A stretch of DNA of 59,709 nt from a virus. Its lineage: Duplodnaviria; Caudoviricetes. The stretch's first letter is position 1. The number at the start of each line of letters is the position of its first letter. Location: IMG/VR virus record IMGVR_UViG_3300024999_000116, positions 1 through 59,709 of that record. One strand, given 5' to 3'. The notes under the pieces were generated by a model, which was not told where the DNA came from, searched no databases, and saw only the letters and a program-made list of their open reading frames with translations. Of the stretch, positions 2,923 to 33,749 are shown in pieces. A program made the position numbers and the translations under genes.

Positions 2923-3411
2923 GCTATGTACACGCTGTACCTATGGACGTTCTTATAATGTGCATTATGTCAACTAGATAAGGCCAAAAGTGCCGTATTT
3001 CCTGCATTTCTTAGTCAGGTGTTCGGTTACTGGTTCCGTTTTTGTCATTGTCCTGCTGTGGTGGACATTTTACCGTACCTGCTCCATTTCACAGGCGCAG
3101 GGTTGTGATACTGTGTTGTACGCACAGAGCGCAGCGCATACGCGAGCAGGGAGCGCAAGCGCACGTATTTAGATAGGATATTCGCCAAAAAGAGGGGGTG
3201 GGGGTCAAACACCCCCGGTATGGATTGGCGGGACTCCGGCGAAGGGTACCTGTACTTTATACTATCACCATCTAACAACATATACATTTTACACAATTTC
3301 ACAAAGTTTATAAATCACTATAATCCAAAAGGAAGTGATTATCGTACTATCAATAATTAAACGCTTCATCCATAACTATTGTCGTATCATACATAAACTA
3401 AATTAAAAGGA

Positions 3412-3782: not shown

Positions 3783-4133
3783 ATGAGCAATGTTAAAAAG
3801 TACCGCAGAAAACCTATTTTTGTTGATGCAGAGCCTTATGTTGATGGCTTGGAAGATGGTTTTTATCAAGGAATTCCTTATATTACTGCCGGACAAATAA
3901 AGATAAAAATATCACCGGGAGATTATATTGCAACAAGACCGGATGGTGCTAGATTCCTCTATGAACCTAAAAACTTCGAGGCGACTTATGAGGAAGTAGA
4001 GAATATGGAAGATACTCGCCCCATATGTCCTGACTGTAAAACTATCATGGTTAAGACTCGTATTGAGTTAAGTGACGGTAGCGGTTGGTTCTCTGGTTGG
4101 GGTTGTGATTGTAAATATGAACCAAAAAGTTAA
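3783..4133 (+). CDS. PGDY-motif phage protein
   Basis: KKYRRKPIFVDA..ISPGDYI..YEPKNFEATYE, a common phage family. Confidence 0.6.
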   Translation: MSNVKKYRRKPIFVDAEPYVDGLEDGFYQGIPYITAGQIKIKISPGDYIATRPDGARFLYEPKNFEATYEEVENMEDTRPICPDCKTIMVKTRIELSDGSGWFSGWGCDCKYEPKS

Positions 4134-11023: not shown

Positions 11024-11187
11024 AACCAATTTTAAAGGTTATGCCGATATGTACCCATAGTTAGTGGGGATTTTAAGCCTTTGGATTGCTACATCAAACA
11101 CGATTAGGATTAATCCGAAAGTGGGCAGGATGAATAAGGAAGAAAACTTTATATGTTTTTGTAACGGATAGGGTATGTGACGATGCT
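11024..11187 (+). ncRNA. Putative TnpB omega-RNA: scaffold ending ...GTAACGG (11167) plus flanking guide
   Basis: Non-coding tail tatgtacccatagttagtgggattttaagcc..gatgaataaggaag..tttttgtaacgg resembles Clostridial tnpB right ends. Boundaries are approximate. Confidence 0.6.
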
Positions 11188-24607: not shown

Positions 24608-27600
24608 ATGGGTTTTTTTGGAGATTTAGGCGGTAGTAAAAAAGCCAGCAATTCACCTTCCGCAACAAGGTCAAGTAGAGGATTTTTTGATTTTGACGAG
24701 AACGGAAACATTGCAGGACAGGGGCTGGCAGCAATGCCAGTCGCCCCAAAATCTCCTGCAGTTAATAATGATATGGGAAAAAGTGCATATTTTAGACTAG
24801 ATGAAAAATTAGGTGGACGCTTACCTTTTGGTTCGGAAGGACCCTCTTTATCGGATGTTGGTAAAGATATTATAAATCTTCCTAGTATAATAAATAATGC
24901 AGGTAGACAAGCAATGACATTTGGCCAATATAATAAATTCGAGGATTGGCTTGACGAAAAACTAGGTAACACAGGCGCAACGAAAGAAATGAGAGAAAAA
25001 CAAGAACCTAAGTCTTTAGTTGGTGACTTAGGGAATTTAGTCGGTTTTGTTTCCGGTTCAACAATTCCCATTGGTGGCATTGGAAAATTGGTTGATAGGG
25101 GATTAAGACTTGCTCCTGCTACATCAACATTGGGAAAATTGGGCCAAGCGGCATTAAAAAGCGGAACGGCAGGAGGCATTTATGGTGGTACAGAAGCAAC
25201 GCTAAATGGCGAATCTTTGCCTGACATAGCCAAGTTAGCGGCGACAGATGCCGCTATATTTGCAGGTGGTGACGTTGCTCTAAGAGGTGCAGGACAACTA
25301 ATAAGCAAGCTAAGAAAAACGCCGCCACCTGTTGCTGCTCCCAACACGGCAGAATCATTTAGAGAAAAAGTTAGTCGTGATACTGAAAAAAAAGGTACCT
25401 TCTCTGAAAAGGTAGATAAGTTTAATACTCAGTTTATAGACGATTTAGCACCCGCCGAAAAGGTTGAGAAGAATGTTAGGGGCAAGTTGTCTAGTGCAGA
25501 AAATAGCCTTTATAAAACAGCAAGACTATTTAGAGGATCACCTACCAGAGCAAATAATATTATACAGAAGCAACTGAAACCTACAATTGAGAGTATTGAA
25601 AGCCAAGGATTTACTACTTCTGACTTGGGCGACTACGCTTTGGCACATCACGCAAAAGACGTTAATGCCGCAGGAATTAAGTCTGGATTTACGGATGATG
25701 AAATTAATGCAGTTATAACCAAATACGGAACTCCAGAAATGGAGGCGGCGAGACAGGAGTTACTTAAATATAACGACATACTGTTAGACGAACTAGCTAC
25801 AACAGGTGTTATTGATGCAACATTGCCAGCAACACTAAAGGCTAAATGGTCAAACTATATGCCCCTTTTTAGAAGTTTTGACGATAATAAAGTTGACTTT
25901 ACTAATGGTCTAGGAAGTTCACTTGTAAATGCTACTTCGCCAATTAAAAGTTTAAAGGGTTCCAGTAGAAAAGTTATCGACCCATTAGAATCATTAATTA
26001 AAAACACATACCAAAGTATCAATGCCGCAGAGAGAAATAAGGTATCCCTACAAGTAGCAAAACTGGCACTTGATGATACTACCGGAACATTCGTTAAAAG
26101 ATTAGCACCTGGGGCAAATAAAGATAGACTTAATACTGTCTATCTTTTAGAAAACGGTAAAAAGATTTTTTTCGAGGTACAACCTGACGTTTATAAAGCA
26201 CTGAAGTCTCTTGATAAAGAGAGTAGTAACTTTTTAGTTCGACTATTACAGAAACCTGCATCATTATTAAGGGCAGGTGCTACTCTGACACCTGAGTTTA
26301 GTTTTAGAAACCCTGTGCGTGATGTTGTTTCAGCGTTCGTTACTTCTAAATCAGGATTTAACCCTATAACTGATTTTCCGGTTGCTTTTTTTGAGGCACT
26401 AACCAAGGGTAAGGGTATTAATGTTAAAGGAGTTGGAATTGTTAAGCCAAAAGGACTATATGATAATTTTTTAGCCGATAATGGCGGTTATGGCAACATA
26501 CTTTCTATGGATAGAAAACTGCAACAACAGGCACTAAAGGAAATTAGTAAAGGGACGATTAAGGACAAATTCGTCGATATTGCAAGTGGAAAGTCTCTAA
26601 TAAAAGTGCTTAGGGGAATTGCCGATACCACAGAAACAGCAACTAAATTAGGCGAGTATAGGGCGGCACTCAGAAGTGTGGTAAGTAGACCTGAGGCGGC
26701 GTATAGAGCGAGAGACGTTATGGACTTCTCTCGTGCCGGAAGTTCTGTTCGTGAGGCTAATAAAATTGTTGCTTTTCTAAATGCAAACATTCAAGGTAAG
26801 TCGAAACTTATTAGAGCGTTCAAGGAAAATCCAACTGGTTTTACTGCTAAAGCGATAACTTCTATCTCATTGCCAACTGTCGGAGTCTATTTGATGCAGA
26901 AAAATATGGCTAACGATAAGCAGAAGGAATTAATCGCAGATGCCCCCAACTGGCTTAAAAGTAGTTTTTGGCTAATGCCTATACCTGGAACCGATCAGGT
27001 AGCAAGGATACCTAAACCGTTTGACCTAGCACCTGTTTTTGCTAACTCAGTTGAACGGATGATGAAATATGTTGAGGATAACGATCCGGATGCTTTTGAT
27101 GGATATATCAGGGAAACATTCGGAACAATGTCTATACCAACCATGATTACCGGCATAATACCGTTAATTGAGGGTATGGCAAACTATTCATTCTTCCGTC
27201 AAGGACCAATTATACCGCAACGAGAACAGTTTATTAATTTCTCAGACCAGTACGATACTAACACCTCCGAGGTAGCAAAAAAAATAGGAAAAGAAATAGA
27301 CAGTGTGACGGGTGGCGAAGGTACGTTTAAAAACTTCGGTTCCCCACGTATTATTGATAACACTATTCGCGGACTTACTGCTGGACTTGGTTCGCTTGCT
27401 ACCGGCGCAATGGATCAGATACTAGAAAGTACAGGAATGGTTGACGAAAAAAACAAACCAACCAGAAAACCGAGCGAGTTGCCGATAGTTAAAGCATTAT
27501 TGGTTAGCGATACAGGAAGTGGTCAGTCAATGACAGACTTATATAAGTTAAGAGATAAACTTATGCGAGAAAAAGGTTCTGCTGAAATAGGGAAAAACTC

Positions 27601-27799
27601 TTTTAAAGGCAAGGCAGAATTAAGGTTTGTAACGAAGGCAACGGACGATATAGGAAAAATTACTAAGATTATGCGACAAGTTGAAAACAACCCCAAAATC
27701 AATAGTGACATTAAGCGAAAGAGGTTGGACGAATTGAATAAGCGGAGAAATACTATAGCATCAAGTGTAATGGAACGCATTAATTCGGCTAAAAAATAA
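24608..27799 (+). CDS. Large ejection/polyvalent protein with C-terminal LPD38-like domain
   Basis: RNPVRD, DFSRAG..AFLNANIQG, FWLMPIP..RIPKPFDL, NYSFFRQGPIIP. Confidence 0.7.
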   Translation: MGFFGDLGGSKKASNSPSATRSSRGFFDFDENGNIAGQGLAAMPVAPKSPAVNNDMGKSAYFRLDEKLGGRLPFGSEGPSLSDVGKDIINLPSIINNAGRQAMTFGQYNKFEDWLDEKLGNTGATKEMREKQEPKSLVGDLGNLVGFVSGSTIPIGGIGKLVDRGLRLAPATSTLGKLGQAALKSGTAGGIYGGTEATLNGESLPDIAKLAATDAAIFAGGDVALRGAGQLISKLRKTPPPVAAPNTAESFREKVSRDTEKKGTFSEKVDKFNTQFIDDLAPAEKVEKNVRGKLSSAENSLYKTARLFRGSPTRANNIIQKQLKPTIESIESQGFTTSDLGDYALAHHAKDVNAAGIKSGFTDDEINAVITKYGTPEMEAARQELLKYNDILLDELATTGVIDATLPATLKAKWSNYMPLFRSFDDNKVDFTNGLGSSLVNATSPIKSLKGSSRKVIDPLESLIKNTYQSINAAERNKVSLQVAKLALDDTTGTFVKRLAPGANKDRLNTVYLLENGKKIFFEVQPDVYKALKSLDKESSNFLVRLLQKPASLLRAGATLTPEFSFRNPVRDVVSAFVTSKSGFNPITDFPVAFFEALTKGKGINVKGVGIVKPKGLYDNFLADNGGYGNILSMDRKLQQQALKEISKGTIKDKFVDIASGKSLIKVLRGIADTTETATKLGEYRAALRSVVSRPEAAYRARDVMDFSRAGSSVREANKIVAFLNANIQGKSKLIRAFKENPTGFTAKAITSISLPTVGVYLMQKNMANDKQKELIADAPNWLKSSFWLMPIPGTDQVARIPKPFDLAPVFANSVERMMKYVEDNDPDAFDGYIRETFGTMSIPTMITGIIPLIEGMANYSFFRQGPIIPQREQFINFSDQYDTNTSEVAKKIGKEIDSVTGGEGTFKNFGSPRIIDNTIRGLTAGLGSLATGAMDQILESTGMVDEKNKPTRKPSELPIVKALLVSDTGSGQSMTDLYKLRDKLMREKGSAEIGKNSFKGKAELRFVTKATDDIGKITKIMRQVENNPKINSDIKRKRLDELNKRRNTIASSVMERINSAKK

Positions 27800-28029: not shown

Positions 28030-28233
28030 TTAATTTTTATCAACAAACTCCAATATTTCTCCTGGGTTACATTCTAATGCAAAGCATAGACGCTCTATAA
28101 CTTCCAGGGAAACATATTGATTTGTGTTTAATTTGGCCATAGTACCGCCAGATATTTTAGCTTGTTTCATTATATCTTGTTTCTTTATATTTCTATCAAT
28201 CAGTATTTTTTGAAATAGTTTATAACTAACCAT
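28030..28233 (-). CDS. Xre/Cro-C1 HTH regulator (HTH_26-like)
   Basis: MVSYKLFQKILIDR..VSLEVIERLCFALECNPGEILEF. Confidence 0.85.
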   Translation of the reverse strand: MVSYKLFQKILIDRNIKKQDIMKQAKISGGTMAKLNTNQYVSLEVIERLCFALECNPGEILEFVDKN

Positions 28234-28322
28234 TGTGAATGTACCTCCTAAAACATATTATTCTATCTTATATATTTATATTAGTATATCAAAAAATATT
28301 TGACAAAACAAATATAATTTCA

Positions 28323-28350
28323 TTGACTTGTAAATTCAATATGTTATAAT
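28323..28350 (+). promoter_or_regulatory. sigma-A promoter of the RAMP-HNH-array operon
   Basis: TTGACT-16-TATAAT with extended TG. Confidence 0.6.
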
Positions 28351-28390
28351 AATATATAAGATGTTATAGATTGTATATAGGAGGTTGGGC

Positions 28391-29023
28391 ATGGGCAAAA
28401 ACATTTTAACGGCAACAATCGAAATAAAAGGAATTAGACCTCTGTTATGGCATGTATTTGGTCCTGATTCTCTGCCGCTTGAAAAACAGGAGAGGACAGG
28501 AGTTGCCGGACACGATCCGGAGGAATGGCGCAAAACTTATGTAGCAACCAAGAGTGGACAACTATATTTGCCTGGTTCTTATTTTTTCGGAACCTATATT
28601 GCAGGTGCTAAGTTTATTAAGAAGGGTAAGGGTTCAATTCAAAGCATGGTATCAGCAACATTGCAGGTACTCGATGATAAGGTTTTGATTAACAGACACC
28701 TACCGGAAGATATTCACGAAAAACCGCATAAGTATTACAATGCTGACGAAGAATTGGTTTATATTGACGTTCGCTCAGTACGTAATCCGTCAACCAAGGC
28801 AAGAAACATTCGTTATCGCGTTGCAACTTGTCATGGATGGGAATGTAAATTTTCGATAATGTTTGACAAGACGGTTGTTAGTCGCCAGGAAATGCACGCA
28901 GCCATTATTGATGCAGGTAAGTTATCCGGCATTGGTGATGGTCGCTCTGTGGGATACGGAAGGTTTGAAGTGTTATCTTTTGAAATACAGGAGGAAGATA
29001 ATGCCAAGGAAAAGACCTCCTAA
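28391..29023 (+). CDS. Stand-alone Cas7/RAMP-superfamily protein (Vipr-like)
   Basis: ATG 28391 after GGAGG. First strand ATIEIKGIRPLL, LYLPGSYFFG (cf. RAMP YIPGSSxKG), and C-terminal Gly-rich loop GIGDGRSVGYGRFEV. Confidence 0.8.
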   Translation: MGKNILTATIEIKGIRPLLWHVFGPDSLPLEKQERTGVAGHDPEEWRKTYVATKSGQLYLPGSYFFGTYIAGAKFIKKGKGSIQSMVSATLQVLDDKVLINRHLPEDIHEKPHKYYNADEELVYIDVRSVRNPSTKARNIRYRVATCHGWECKFSIMFDKTVVSRQEMHAAIIDAGKLSGIGDGRSVGYGRFEVLSFEIQEEDNAKEKTS

Positions 29024-29291
29024 AGAAATATGGCAAAAGTTAAGGATAATAGTCTGGAATCGTGACGGAGGTAAATGTAAACACTGTCACGAACCAGTTG
29101 ACTTAAATAAATGTCACATAGATCATATTCGTTCTGGTAAACTAGGAACCAATAAACTAAACAATCTTAGAACTCTATGTCGTTGCTGTCATGTTTTGCG
29201 TGATGATGGGCGGCATAGGGGGATGATTAGTAAAGCACTTAAGGATGGTATTATTCCTCCGAATTGGCGGGAGTTAGTTTGGGGTGATTAA
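29001..29291 (+). CDS. HNH endonuclease translationally coupled to the RAMP gene
   Basis: ATG 29001 after AGGAGG; RDGGKCKHC..HIDHI..GTNKLNNLRTLCRCCH. Confidence 0.85.
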   Translation: MPRKRPPKEIWQKLRIIVWNRDGGKCKHCHEPVDLNKCHIDHIRSGKLGTNKLNNLRTLCRCCHVLRDDGRHRGMISKALKDGIIPPNWRELVWGD

Positions 29292-29300
29292 TATATATGC

Positions 29301-29395
29301 GGCGGGGACTGATTTGGAGTGGAGAGATATGTTTAGGTGTGGTGAGTTGGGGACCGGCGTGGTGCGGTTAGGTAGGGCGAGGTAAGATAGGACGA
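29301..29395 (+). repeat. Phased pentamer array 1 (19 units, G(G)H-NN): putative guide RNA
   Basis: ggcgg ggact gattt ggagt ggaga gatat gttta ggtgt ggtga gttgg ggacc ggcgt ggtgc ggtta ggtag ggcga ggtaa gatag gacga; 19/19 start with G, 13/19 with GG. Confidence 0.85.
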
Positions 29396-29397
29396 TA

Positions 29398-29462
29398 TTA
29401 TTGAAACAGGGGTAAAACCCTGTTCGCAGGAGGTGACTGTCCTGCGCTGATGAGATAAGTTA
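29398..29462 (+). ncRNA. Type II hammerhead ribozyme
   Basis: GAAA 29403-06; stem III ACAGGG/CCCUGU; GUU cleavage triplet 29422-24; stem I CGCAGGA/UCCUGCG; CUGAUGA 29447-53; open stem II UUAUU/GAUAA. Confidence 0.85.
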
Positions 29463-29472
29463 AATAATACGA

Positions 29473-29557
29473 GTTTTGGAGTGGAGGGGTCGGGTCCGGA
29501 ATGGAGTGTCCCGGCGGGGATAGGTATGGTGAGGCGGGGTATGTCTAGGCGAGGGTA
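29473..29557 (+). repeat. Phased pentamer array 2 (17 units, G(G)H-NN): putative guide RNA
   Basis: gtttt ggagt ggagg ggtcg ggtcc ggaat ggagt gtccc ggcgg ggata ggtat ggtga ggcgg ggtat gtcta ggcga gggta; 17/17 start with G, 14/17 with GG. Confidence 0.85.
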
Positions 29558-29560
29558 ATA

Positions 29561-29596
29561 AAAAATAACCACATCTTAATCGATGTGGTTATTTTT
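29561..29596. terminator. Bidirectional intrinsic terminator
   Basis: aaaaataaccacatc-ttaatc-gatgtggttattttt, a perfect 15-bp inverted repeat. Confidence 0.85.
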
Positions 29597-29801
29597 CGTC
29601 CGACACGTATTCTAGTAAGTCGCCTGGGTGACATTTAAGGGCAGTACAAATTCTATCTATTACCGACACGTCAATTCTGGTGATGTTTCCGTTATACATT
29701 GCATACAGAGTATTCTTATTAACTCCGCTTAACTCGTGTAGTTTAGGAACTTTCATTCTATCTCTGTCGAACATAATTTTGTCTAAATTAAATTTTATCA
29801 A
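29589..29801 (-). CDS. Xre/Cro-C1 HTH regulator (HTH_26-like)
   Basis: TTG 29801 after GGAGGTG; IKFNLDKIM..RIDVSVIDRICTALKCHPGDLLEY. Confidence 0.85.
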   Translation of the reverse strand: MIKFNLDKIMFDRDRMKVPKLHELSGVNKNTLYAMYNGNITRIDVSVIDRICTALKCHPGDLLEYVSDEK

Positions 29802-29883
29802 CTTCGATACACCTCCATGAAGTATATTATACAACGATGCACAAATAAAAGCAACTGAATTTGATATTTTATACACATAAGTA

Positions 29884-33053: not shown

Positions 33054-33524
33054 TTAGTTGACTATTTCCCAATCATCGGCAAGCACATCAAGGGTGTTGG
33101 GTGTATACATGAAATGCGATCCTGTTGCCATTTTCATTTGAAGGTACGGTTCACATTTAAACAAGTCACCTTCAGTCATGCCCCATGCTTTTGCAGTTTG
33201 AGCGTTACACGGTATGCCCTGCGGATAACCTTTCTGATAGACGATAAACATACCTTTACCATTCCAACCAGAACGAGCAACCTTAAATCCTTGCTTCATG
33301 GCTTCTATTGCCAATCCAAATGTCATGCCGTTAGTTTTGCGATACGCTTCGTCGAATTGTTTTTTAGGCGACCAACTTACATATCCATCGGGATACTTTA
33401 CTAAATACCCATTACCCTCGCTGTCTGCATTGGAAGTGTCAATAGGTCTTTGTAGAGTTACTCCTGCTACTTCCGCTGTCATTGGTCCTGCTTCAATAAT
33501 TTTAACTCCGATATATTTATCCAT
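33054..33524 (-). CDS. DUF2829/Tad2-like anti-defence sponge fused to an N-terminal YPDGYxSWSP domain
   Basis: ATG 33524 after GGAGG; MTFGLAIEAMKQGFKVARSGWNGKGMF..DVLADDWEIV. Confidence 0.75.
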   Translation of the reverse strand: MDKYIGVKIIEAGPMTAEVAGVTLQRPIDTSNADSEGNGYLVKYPDGYVSWSPKKQFDEAYRKTNGMTFGLAIEAMKQGFKVARSGWNGKGMFIVYQKGYPQGIPCNAQTAKAWGMTEGDLFKCEPYLQMKMATGSHFMYTPNTLDVLADDWEIVN

Positions 33525-33749
33525 TATCTTATCCCTCCATAGTTCTCTATTAGTCATTCAATTATACTACCAAGCAAATAAAAATTCAACCGTTTACAGC
33601 AAACTCATACCGTATGCAGGATAAATAATGTTTGATGTAGAATAACTATAATACATCTTCTGATTGTCTTACTAGCATAAAATAATCCGAAGTATATCTA
33701 CAAACAAAGGTCAACCTTCCACGGTCTGACCTCTTTTTTTTTGGTATAA

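Follow-up and report, generated by a model that had tools for sequence, protein, structure and literature searches.

A probable VIPR locus with an HNH nuclease gene in a phage genome, and LPD38 polyvalent-protein genes as candidate targets of its guides

Background

The virus record IMGVR_UViG_3300024999_000116 of IMG/VR (Duplodnaviria; Caudoviricetes) is a near-complete phage genome of 59,709 bases; the whole record was analyzed and is called the window below. Near its middle, at 29301-29395 (+), a guanine returns every five bases while the last two bases of each unit vary (array 1), and a sister tract follows at 29473-29557 (+; array 2). What is such a tract for and, if it acts as a guide, which sequence does it read? 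A preliminary description, made from the sequence alone, had proposed that array 1 encodes a gapped target in which one base is skipped per unit. We estimate a probability of about 90% that array 1 is the variable part of vrRNA1, one of the two guide RNAs (vrRNA1 and vrRNA2) of a phage-encoded VIPR (Viral Interference Programmable Repeat) system.

VIPR is a CRISPR-like system known from 2026 preprints (10.64898/2026.04.26.720920, 10.64898/2026.04.26.720927, 10.64898/2026.10.15.759431). In their description Vipr is a small phage-borne RAMP protein of which one protomer sits on each YNNGG repeat of a vrRNA, burying GGY and presenting NN, and a "1-nt skip rule" applies, by which double-stranded DNA is read as NNxNNx. 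According to the same sources most natural targets are coding sequences of competing phages and satellites, in which the skipped base is the wobble base, so that synonymous escape is blocked. VIPR systems fall into seven types, some with hammerhead-interspersed arrays and some with nuclease partners including HNH. Enzymes are found in types III-V and hammerhead arrays in types I and V; fig. S21 depicts an HNH Vap, and the nuclease types III and V are reported to be enriched in host defence islands (10.64898/2026.04.26.720920). For type II these papers show that filaments assemble, that the skip rule applies and that DNA is bound with an R-loop triplex (10.64898/2026.04.26.720920; 10.64898/2026.04.26.720927).

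Results

Array 1 consists of 19 pentamers of the form G-[G/A/T]-H-N-N, which can be read directly from the letters and are recovered by parsing: GGCGG GGACT GATTT GGAGT GGAGA GATAT GTTTA GGTGT GGTGA GTTGG GGACC GGCGT GGTGC GGTTA GGTAG GGCGA GGTAA GATAG GACGA. Position 1 is G in 19/19 units; position 2 is G in 13, A in 4 and T in 2; position 3 is T in 11, C in 4, A in 4 and G in none. Positions 4-5 read GG CT TT GT GA AT TA GT GA GG CC GT GC TA AG GA AA AG GA, exactly the dinucleotides that the preliminary description had listed. Array 2 has 17 units with G at position 1 in all 17, and pooling of both arrays gives G at position 1 in 36/36, G at position 2 in 27/36 and a pyrimidine at position 3 in 25/36 (A in 10, G in 1). 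In a scan of the whole window with 60-base frames, at least 11/12 G at one phase of period 5 occur in two regions only, 29292-29400 and 29464-29562, both on the + strand, and no region of the window passes the same scan for C, which is equivalent to the - strand. The periodic pattern is not due to chance. Tandem Repeats Finder reports neither array because the units are too dissimilar.

The protein encoded ahead of the arrays identifies the system. Vipr has as its best sequence match in the PDB chain 36pp_D, the "SUSP1 Vipr protein" (phmmer, E 2.9e-6), in an alignment that by sequence covers only about the C-terminal half. An AF2 model (pLDDT 73) retrieves Csm3 chains and type VII Cas7 as top Foldseek matches (E 3.4e-9 to 1e-6), and the G-loop follows the pattern GhGxxxxxGhG. 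In the family alignment H23, R145, D185 and R187 are conserved, the last three (aligned with SUSP1 R138, D177 and R179) being kept in 26/26, 23/26 and 26/26 family members. Conservation extends to the residues that contact G1 and G2. Among PHROG families the protein matches phrog_4652 (function unknown; E 4.1e-14), and the GenBank phage collection gives no match to it. By profile comparison Vipr is not a member of a Cas family, since its match to Pfam Cas_Cas6_C (15.7 bits) stays below the curated cut-off of 23 and those to PADLOC Cas6 and Csm4 are weak. The vap gene product matches PF01844 with 25.3 bits (gathering cut-off 21.4) and many HNH families of PHROG, one of them terminase-associated. 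The cassette lies between the tail and polyvalent-protein genes and the lysis genes; vipr and the HNH gene are the only + strand genes between two opposite-strand HTH genes, and window-wide repeat and domain scans found no CRISPR repeat-spacer array and no other cas genes. Several features by which a VIPR locus is recognized are found here together: Vipr homology, pentamer arrays, hypervariable NN positions and a minimal locus of vipr with one vap. Array 1 is an element of a kind already described in the 2026 preprints.

The same architecture recurs across the family. From 1290 Vipr homologs at E <= 0.001, 81 loci (1 viral and 80 from metagenomes) were compared. A simple array caller finds 97 arrays in 56/81 of these, 94 of them on the vipr strand; in those 94, G fills position 2 in 94%, position 3 has C in 53%, T in 33%, A in 11% and G in 3%, and positions 4-5 are near even. 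A homolog of the HNH gene lies on the same strand as vipr in 71/81 loci. The preliminary description had reasoned that NN positions shared unchanged among related phages would refute the decoded gapped target; in loci L002-L006, whose Vipr proteins are 87-97% identical to that of the window, the layout is the same and the NN positions are entirely unrelated. Contigs from four DNA runs of one study point the same way: many related contigs cover vipr and the HNH gene, the arrays are covered by one identical contig only, and the contigs of relatives depart at 29295 into another array. Guide cassettes would be exchanged between loci that are otherwise 94-97% identical. An A at position 3 is found in 42/127 units of the closest relatives, next to the 10/36 of the window.

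One 12-mer, TTTGGAGTGGAG, recurs without change in both arrays, at 29313-29324 in array 1 (units 3-5) and at 29475-29486 in array 2 (units 1-3). Partial duplications between arrays are seen in relatives too, for instance GGCGGGGAT in both arrays of L006, and may be traces of how new guides arise.

Between the arrays lies a full-length match to the type II hammerhead family RF02276 with three stems and both core motifs, CUGAUGA and GAAAC; it scores 35.8 bits (E 8.6e-6), 1.2 bits below the Rfam gathering threshold of 37. The family consensus predicts cleavage after GUU, between 29424 and 29425. Among 14 relatives examined, two carry a type II hammerhead at the inter-array position (L006, 36.3 bits; L008, 38.8 bits). 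The hairpin after array 2 is present in both the minimum free energy and the centroid fold and is followed by a U-run; a simple terminator scan does not call it.

Where the guides end was judged from the relatives. In 84 unique arrays the dinucleotide AA occupies the second and third units from the 3' end in 37/84 and 35/84 cases, against 6.7% of interior units, and arrays 1 and 2 both finish with ...GGCGA GG(G)TA A, an ending that recurs in relatives. On these grounds units 16-19 of array 1 (GA AA AG GA) and units 16-17 of array 2 are probably a 3' tail rather than guide, and the tail of array 1 probably runs into hammerhead stem II. The target string that the preliminary description decoded from all 19 units is then probably some four units too long, its end coming from tail and hammerhead stem.

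Other loci have different elements between their arrays. The one in L003 (3515-3575) and L005 (1198-1258) shows GAAAC and stems like those of a hammerhead, with a core of TTGACAAG / TTGATAAG as against CTGATGAG; Rfam makes no call there at E <= 0.01, and the element may be a decayed or variant ribozyme. L001, a complete phage genome with terminal repeats, has the order vipr, three arrays, HNH gene, and its arrays are separated by a repeated element of ~47 nt (…TTCTATTCGCTAGCCTAGTGGTGCAACTCCGCAGAATAGAA…) at 3180-3238 and 3330-3365, which is not a hammerhead by Rfam.

A candidate target was found for vrRNA2. Six exact 8-unit seeds, scanned against the viral collection, gave 16, 7, 11, 2, 0 and 12 matches, 48 in total at 38 distinct sites. 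One family only (L118, L120, L122, L124 and L128, hereafter the L120 family) extends beyond its seed, by 10/14 guide bases (binomial P 3.4e-4); all other seed matches agree at 0-7/14 of the guide bases outside the seed, including those of the vrRNA2 seeds of units 1-8 and 8-15 (11 and 2 matches, extension at most 7/14). Outside the L120 family few of the seed matches fall in long ORFs, and the peptide that they spell in common is forced by the pattern. Against the L120 family vrRNA2 scores 26/30 over units 1-15 and 23/24 over units 1-12. The match lies in frame in an 1855-aa open reading frame (ORF), at ...DFAGRPIVPGYMEDLSP..., with each skipped base at a third codon position, and one copy of the family departs from the others at two skipped bases only. 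Compared by eye with the skipped target base, position 3 of vrRNA2 agrees in 4/11 units of this match, which is the chance level.

The target ORF belongs to a recognizable gene family. All 94/94 of its homologs carry PF18857 (LPD38), and the site is the conserved FAGRPIVPGYME motif in the LPD38 gene of distantly related phages. The matched phages measure 62 and 64.9 kb, share about ten homologous genes with the window phage at 23-55% identity and have no Vipr. The ORF is also homologous (BLASTP E 8e-42) to a gene of the window itself, just upstream of the VIPR cassette, whose product matches PF18857 with E 4.6e-33 and 115.3 bits (cut-off 27). At the equivalent self site, 27191-27235 (FFRQGPIIPQREQFI; reading FFRQGPIIPQREQF), only 10-14/30 positions match vrRNA2: the phage's own LPD38 gene is diverged there by a codon indel and substitutions.

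Hypothetical proteins of Bacillus megaterium podophages (PK1, Pascal, Page, Pony and others) also resemble the window's LPD38 protein, with ~50% identity over 76% of its length, a similarity that hints at a host among the Bacillota.

Over 106 LPD38 loci, of which 80 are viral and 26 bacterial, vrRNA2 has its best site on the coding (+) strand in 95/106, and the 30 best-scoring of the 106 all share the same in-frame motif. The top score of 26/30 is reached by the L120 family and by a Paenibacillus tarimensis prophage; in these loci, retrieved because of the vrRNA2 match, shuffled guides reach at most 22 (0/300 attain 26) and skips of 0, 2 and 3 stay at the null level. At the peptide level each of the first 14 decoded vrRNA2 residues occurs at its position in some family member, and the best possible score is 27/30, in P0163.

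A guide from a relative gives independent support. The guides of relatives were scanned, with no seed, over all retrieved non-Vipr DNA (0.83 Mb). Guide L003:3583, whose locus encodes a Vipr 96% identical to that of the window and which played no part in choosing the LPD38 loci, matches the LPD38 locus L147 at 26/30 positions and at 25/26 over units 1-13 (E 2.3e-5). This match too is in frame on the coding strand, at the conserved LPD38 motif K-[ML]-L-T-T-G-I-N-P-V-F-S-L. With skips of 0, 2 and 3 the best E values are 0.059, 0.81 and 0.059. A near-identical guide of L005 scores 25/30, and at the peptide level L003:3583, again best on P0163, stands out among 98 guide-orientations with z 8.3, as against 3.0 for the next unrelated guide. 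Two guides, vrRNA2 and L003:3583, hence arrive at two conserved LPD38 motifs, in frame and with a skip of 1 only. Both run in the sense of the coding strand; pairing with the mRNA is thereby excluded, and they would pair with the template DNA strand, which fits DNA targeting. The 84 guides of relatives, compared with the window phage, give nothing above the level seen at all skip lengths. It is likely, in our view, that this clade naturally targets LPD38 genes of rival phages as a class; the rival itself is probably absent from the collections.

For vrRNA1 the outcome is different. The preliminary description had taken its target to be non-self, and the best 1-nt-skip match in the phage's own 59.7-kb genome is indeed only 22/38, a score reached by 95/100 shuffles (array 2: 21/34, no better than shuffles). 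The gapped search which that description had called for finds no target of array 1 above shuffled background in the sequences searched. In the viral collection the seeds of units 3-10, 8-15 and 5-12 give 16, 7 and 0 matches, none of which extends (best 23/38). Nothing above background was found in the target phages G001 and G002, in the 106 LPD38 loci or, at the peptide level, in 94 LPD38 proteins; 5 + 1 further records hold no target with up to 3 mismatches. Both guides were also compared with the 81 Vipr loci (270 kb), again with nothing above background. Because these searches needed exact 8-unit seeds or at most 3 mismatches and the collections are partial, the missing match does not argue against a guide role of vrRNA1. 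It is array 2 and the guide of the relative, not array 1, that support the gapped code at this locus.

The matches of the array-1 seed of units 8-15 illustrate a property of such patterns: six of the seven viral matches (L099-L104) come from a single conserved gene that unrelated viruses share, a giant-virus bin among them, and none extends. Gapped NNx patterns collect whole protein families in this way, through synonymous variation.

Positions of the cassette and of the homolog of its predicted target are collected in Table 1.

Table 1. Components of the VIPR cassette and the phage's own LPD38 gene, with positions in the window.
Feature	Position	Strand	Basis
Promoter-like site (TTGACT, 16 nt, TATAAT, with TG) ahead of vipr	28323..28350	+	11/12 consensus matches; promoter function inferred
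vipr, RAMP protein, 212 aa (210 aa if the start is ATG 28391), G-loop GIGDGRSVGYGRF	28385..29023	+	
vap, HNH nuclease, 96 aa, 23-nt overlap with the vipr stop	29001..29291	+	PF01844
vrRNA1 guide part, array 1 units 1-15	29301..29375	+	pentamer parse
vrRNA1 units 16-19 (GGCGA GGTAA GATAG GACGA), probable semi-conserved 3' tail into hammerhead stem II	29376..29395	+	
Predicted type II hammerhead ribozyme between the arrays	29399..29464	+	RF02276
vrRNA2 guide part, array 2 units 1-15, decodes to [FL]VGRP[IM]VPGY[IM][DE]G[IM]Y	29473..29547	+	
vrRNA2 units 16-17 (GGCGA GGGTA), probable 3' tail	29548..29557	+	
Terminator hairpin, 11-bp core ATAACCACATC / GATGTGGTTAT, A-run and T-run flanks, common to the convergent HTH gene	29560..29597	.	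fold
Own LPD38 polyvalent-protein gene, homolog of the predicted target	24608..27799	+	PF18857

Discussion

These observations can be assembled into a working model. A single transcript would start at the promoter near 28323, pass through vipr, the HNH gene and both arrays, and stop at the hairpin at 29560-29597. Cleavage by the hammerhead at 29424/29425 would leave vrRNA1 with a stem III hairpin at its end and vrRNA2 with the terminator hairpin. By analogy with the published system, Vipr copies would line up one per pentamer, with G1, G2 and H3 buried and N4N5 presented, and the presented dinucleotides would pair with a strand of the target DNA while one base per unit is flipped out (NNxNNx...). 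Pairing of this kind in a coding target means that the guide reads the first two bases of successive codons. The preliminary description had likewise considered a skip on the wobble position, from which it expected resistance to synonymous escape; in this it agrees with the 1-nt skip rule as reported, and it re-derived the published gapped code from the sequence alone. The target would be rival-phage DNA, with vrRNA2 aimed at the F-[AV]-G-R-P-I-V-P-G-Y-M-E motif of the LPD38 gene, and the co-encoded HNH nuclease probably cuts the bound DNA. The model in full, in which a phage VIPR armed with HNH cuts its rivals, its guides read conserved LPD38 codons and the phage's own LPD38 gene has drifted out of reach, is offered tentatively and at somewhat less than even odds.

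Would the tracts make sense without any guide function? They could be a structural or regulatory element, such as a G-quadruplex 3' untranslated region, a protein sponge or a leader peptide (a 24-codon frame from ATG 29297). GG every 5 nt would in principle permit two-tier quadruplexes, and the array region folds better than shuffles (z -3.2), mostly owing to the ribozyme and the terminator. Such readings are nonetheless very improbable given that the tracts are coupled to a Vipr homolog in 56/81 loci, that hypervariable NN positions stand beside a fixed scaffold, that a 5-nt period is incompatible with coding and that guide-target matches were found. TRAP- or CsrA-type protein-binding repeats and G-quadruplex tracts were weighed by eye and dropped, as was the 24-codon ORF from ATG 29297, the ORF in view of the strict 5-nt period and the link to Vipr. 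Two other alternatives accept the VIPR locus and dispute what it does. One of them regards the LPD38 matches as coincidental, with the true targets in unsampled phages, plasmids or host genes. NNx-pattern matches decode to the same peptide by construction; a conserved motif with many synonymous copies inflates the counts, as the six of seven vrRNA1 seed matches from one unrelated family illustrate; the best score is 26/30 with none perfect, and the matched phages differ from the window phage by 8 GC points. We nevertheless hold coincidence to be unlikely, as two guides of two related phages lead to two conserved motifs of one gene family, in frame and at skip 1 only, as the second guide keeps a low E value (2.3e-5 per guide, ~2e-3 allowing for up to 84 guides), and as the target is homologous to the carrier's own gene, whose copy is diverged at the site. 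The other alternative is that this VIPR only silences transcription, like type II, and that the HNH gene encodes a separate homing or packaging nuclease which travels with vipr. For the tested systems 10.64898/2026.04.26.720920 reports repression and not cleavage, and small HNH genes are common as selfish or packaging genes of phages, the PHROG matches including a terminase-associated family. Still, the HNH gene lies on the same strand beside vipr in 71/81 loci while layouts differ (vipr-HNH-arrays here, vipr-arrays-HNH in L001), and nuclease Vaps including HNH are defining partners of some VIPR types in that preprint; silencing alone appears doubtful to us, if less so than coincidence.

Several points weigh against the interpretation of the arrays as VIPR guides aimed at LPD38 genes. 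The array to which attention was drawn at the outset, that of vrRNA1, has its target in none of the searched sequences, and the best natural matches of vrRNA2 reach 26/30, none being perfect. Units 1-15 of vrRNA2 with up to 3 mismatches are matched in 0/5, 0/401 and 0/401 bacterial genomes, and units 3-12 (10 units, exact) give 0 matches in 185,579 species genomes. With 47.5% GC the matched phages differ from the window phage (39.6%) and may for that reason infect another host, in which case they would stand in for an unsampled true target. The collection scans covered a 1-nt skip only and the LPD38 loci had been chosen by way of the vrRNA2 match, which leaves the guides of relatives as the only ones that compare skip lengths without bias. 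The 1-nt rule itself is, in 10.64898/2026.04.26.720920, bench-tested for type II systems only. The SUSP1 pocket is reported to exclude purines at position 3, which conflicts with A in 10/36 units here; the definition of VIPR in 10.64898/2026.04.26.720920 does, besides tandem GGY/NN pentamers (4 units or more), allow repeats of "related consensus". Finally, the hammerhead lies under its gathering threshold, and the expression, processing and ends of the vrRNAs are predictions.

The closest characterized relative is the type II VIPR of SUSP1 (Vipr, Vap1 and vrRNAs; PDB 36pp). In both systems the RAMP protein is small and has a G-loop, the two proteins are similar in sequence, and the guides are pentamer repeats with two guanines fixed and two bases free. 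As described for SUSP1, both are phage-borne without a CRISPR array or other cas genes, and the targets predicted for them lie in coding sequences of viral competitors, with the skips on wobble positions. Differences concern the accessory gene (an HNH nuclease here, the DNA-binding Vap1 in SUSP1), the separator of the arrays (a predicted hammerhead here, tail pseudoknots in SUSP1), the acceptance of A at position 3 and the 3' tail, which here is a GGYAA-GGYAA-like run with a hairpin; in addition, W178 of SUSP1 corresponds to G186 in the window's Vipr. With the nuclease and ribozyme types the locus shares the HNH partner and, by prediction, hammerhead-separated vrRNAs, yet the nuclease types III and V are reported mainly from host defence islands whereas the systems here and in L001 are phage-borne. 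The Csm3/Cas7 backbone of class 1 CRISPR resembles Vipr in its predicted fold and G-rich loop, and resembles VIPR in that each subunit binds a set number of guide bases and bases are flipped out at regular intervals. The period is however 5 nt with 2 pairing bases in VIPR and 6 nt with 5 pairing bases in Csm3/Cas7, and unlike in class 1 CRISPR there is here no repeat-spacer array, Cas6, Cas5, large subunit or set of adaptation genes. Type II hammerheads of phage transcripts (RF02276) are alike in core motifs, three-stem layout and phage setting; the window's copy falls just short of the gathering threshold, and its putative role here is to separate two guide RNAs.

What the locus adds is a concrete VIPR with HNH and a predicted hammerhead in a near-complete phage genome, with corrected guide boundaries, and a testable natural target class, namely conserved LPD38 motifs in related phages while the own copy is diverged. 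It also indicates that arrays are exchanged as cassettes and that the scaffold tolerates A at position 3. If the model holds, nuclease-type VIPRs would be weapons of phages against phages, as opposed to the host-domesticated defence proposed in 10.64898/2026.04.26.720920; a first natural target class would be named for nuclease-type VIPRs, and the tolerance of A at position 3 would widen the known scaffold code. The literature searched contains no joint mention of LPD38 and vrRNA, and polyvalent proteins do not appear in the main text of 10.64898/2026.04.26.720920; its supplementary target tables may list such targets.

Additional observations

The two HTH genes that bracket the VIPR cassette are of the Cro/CI type (HTH_26), at 28030-28233 (-) and 29589-29876 (-), with E values of 3e-18 and 1.4e-17. 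Direct repeats in the intergenic region 28161-28289 may be operators. A Tad2-like (Thoeris anti-defence 2) protein of 167 aa is encoded at 33054-33557 (-; PF11195, E 3.1e-24), so that the phage has an anti-defence gene a few kb from its VIPR. At one related Vipr locus, L015, a group II intron (RF02005, 155 bits) adjoins at 3786-4016 (-). At the gathering threshold Rfam reports for the window tRNA and RAGATH-18 only, neither of them at the arrays. The RAGATH-18 RNA (RF03064, 62.2 bits, above gathering) lies at 11078-11141 (+), far from the VIPR cassette, and represents a motif class that is found near self-cleaving ribozymes.

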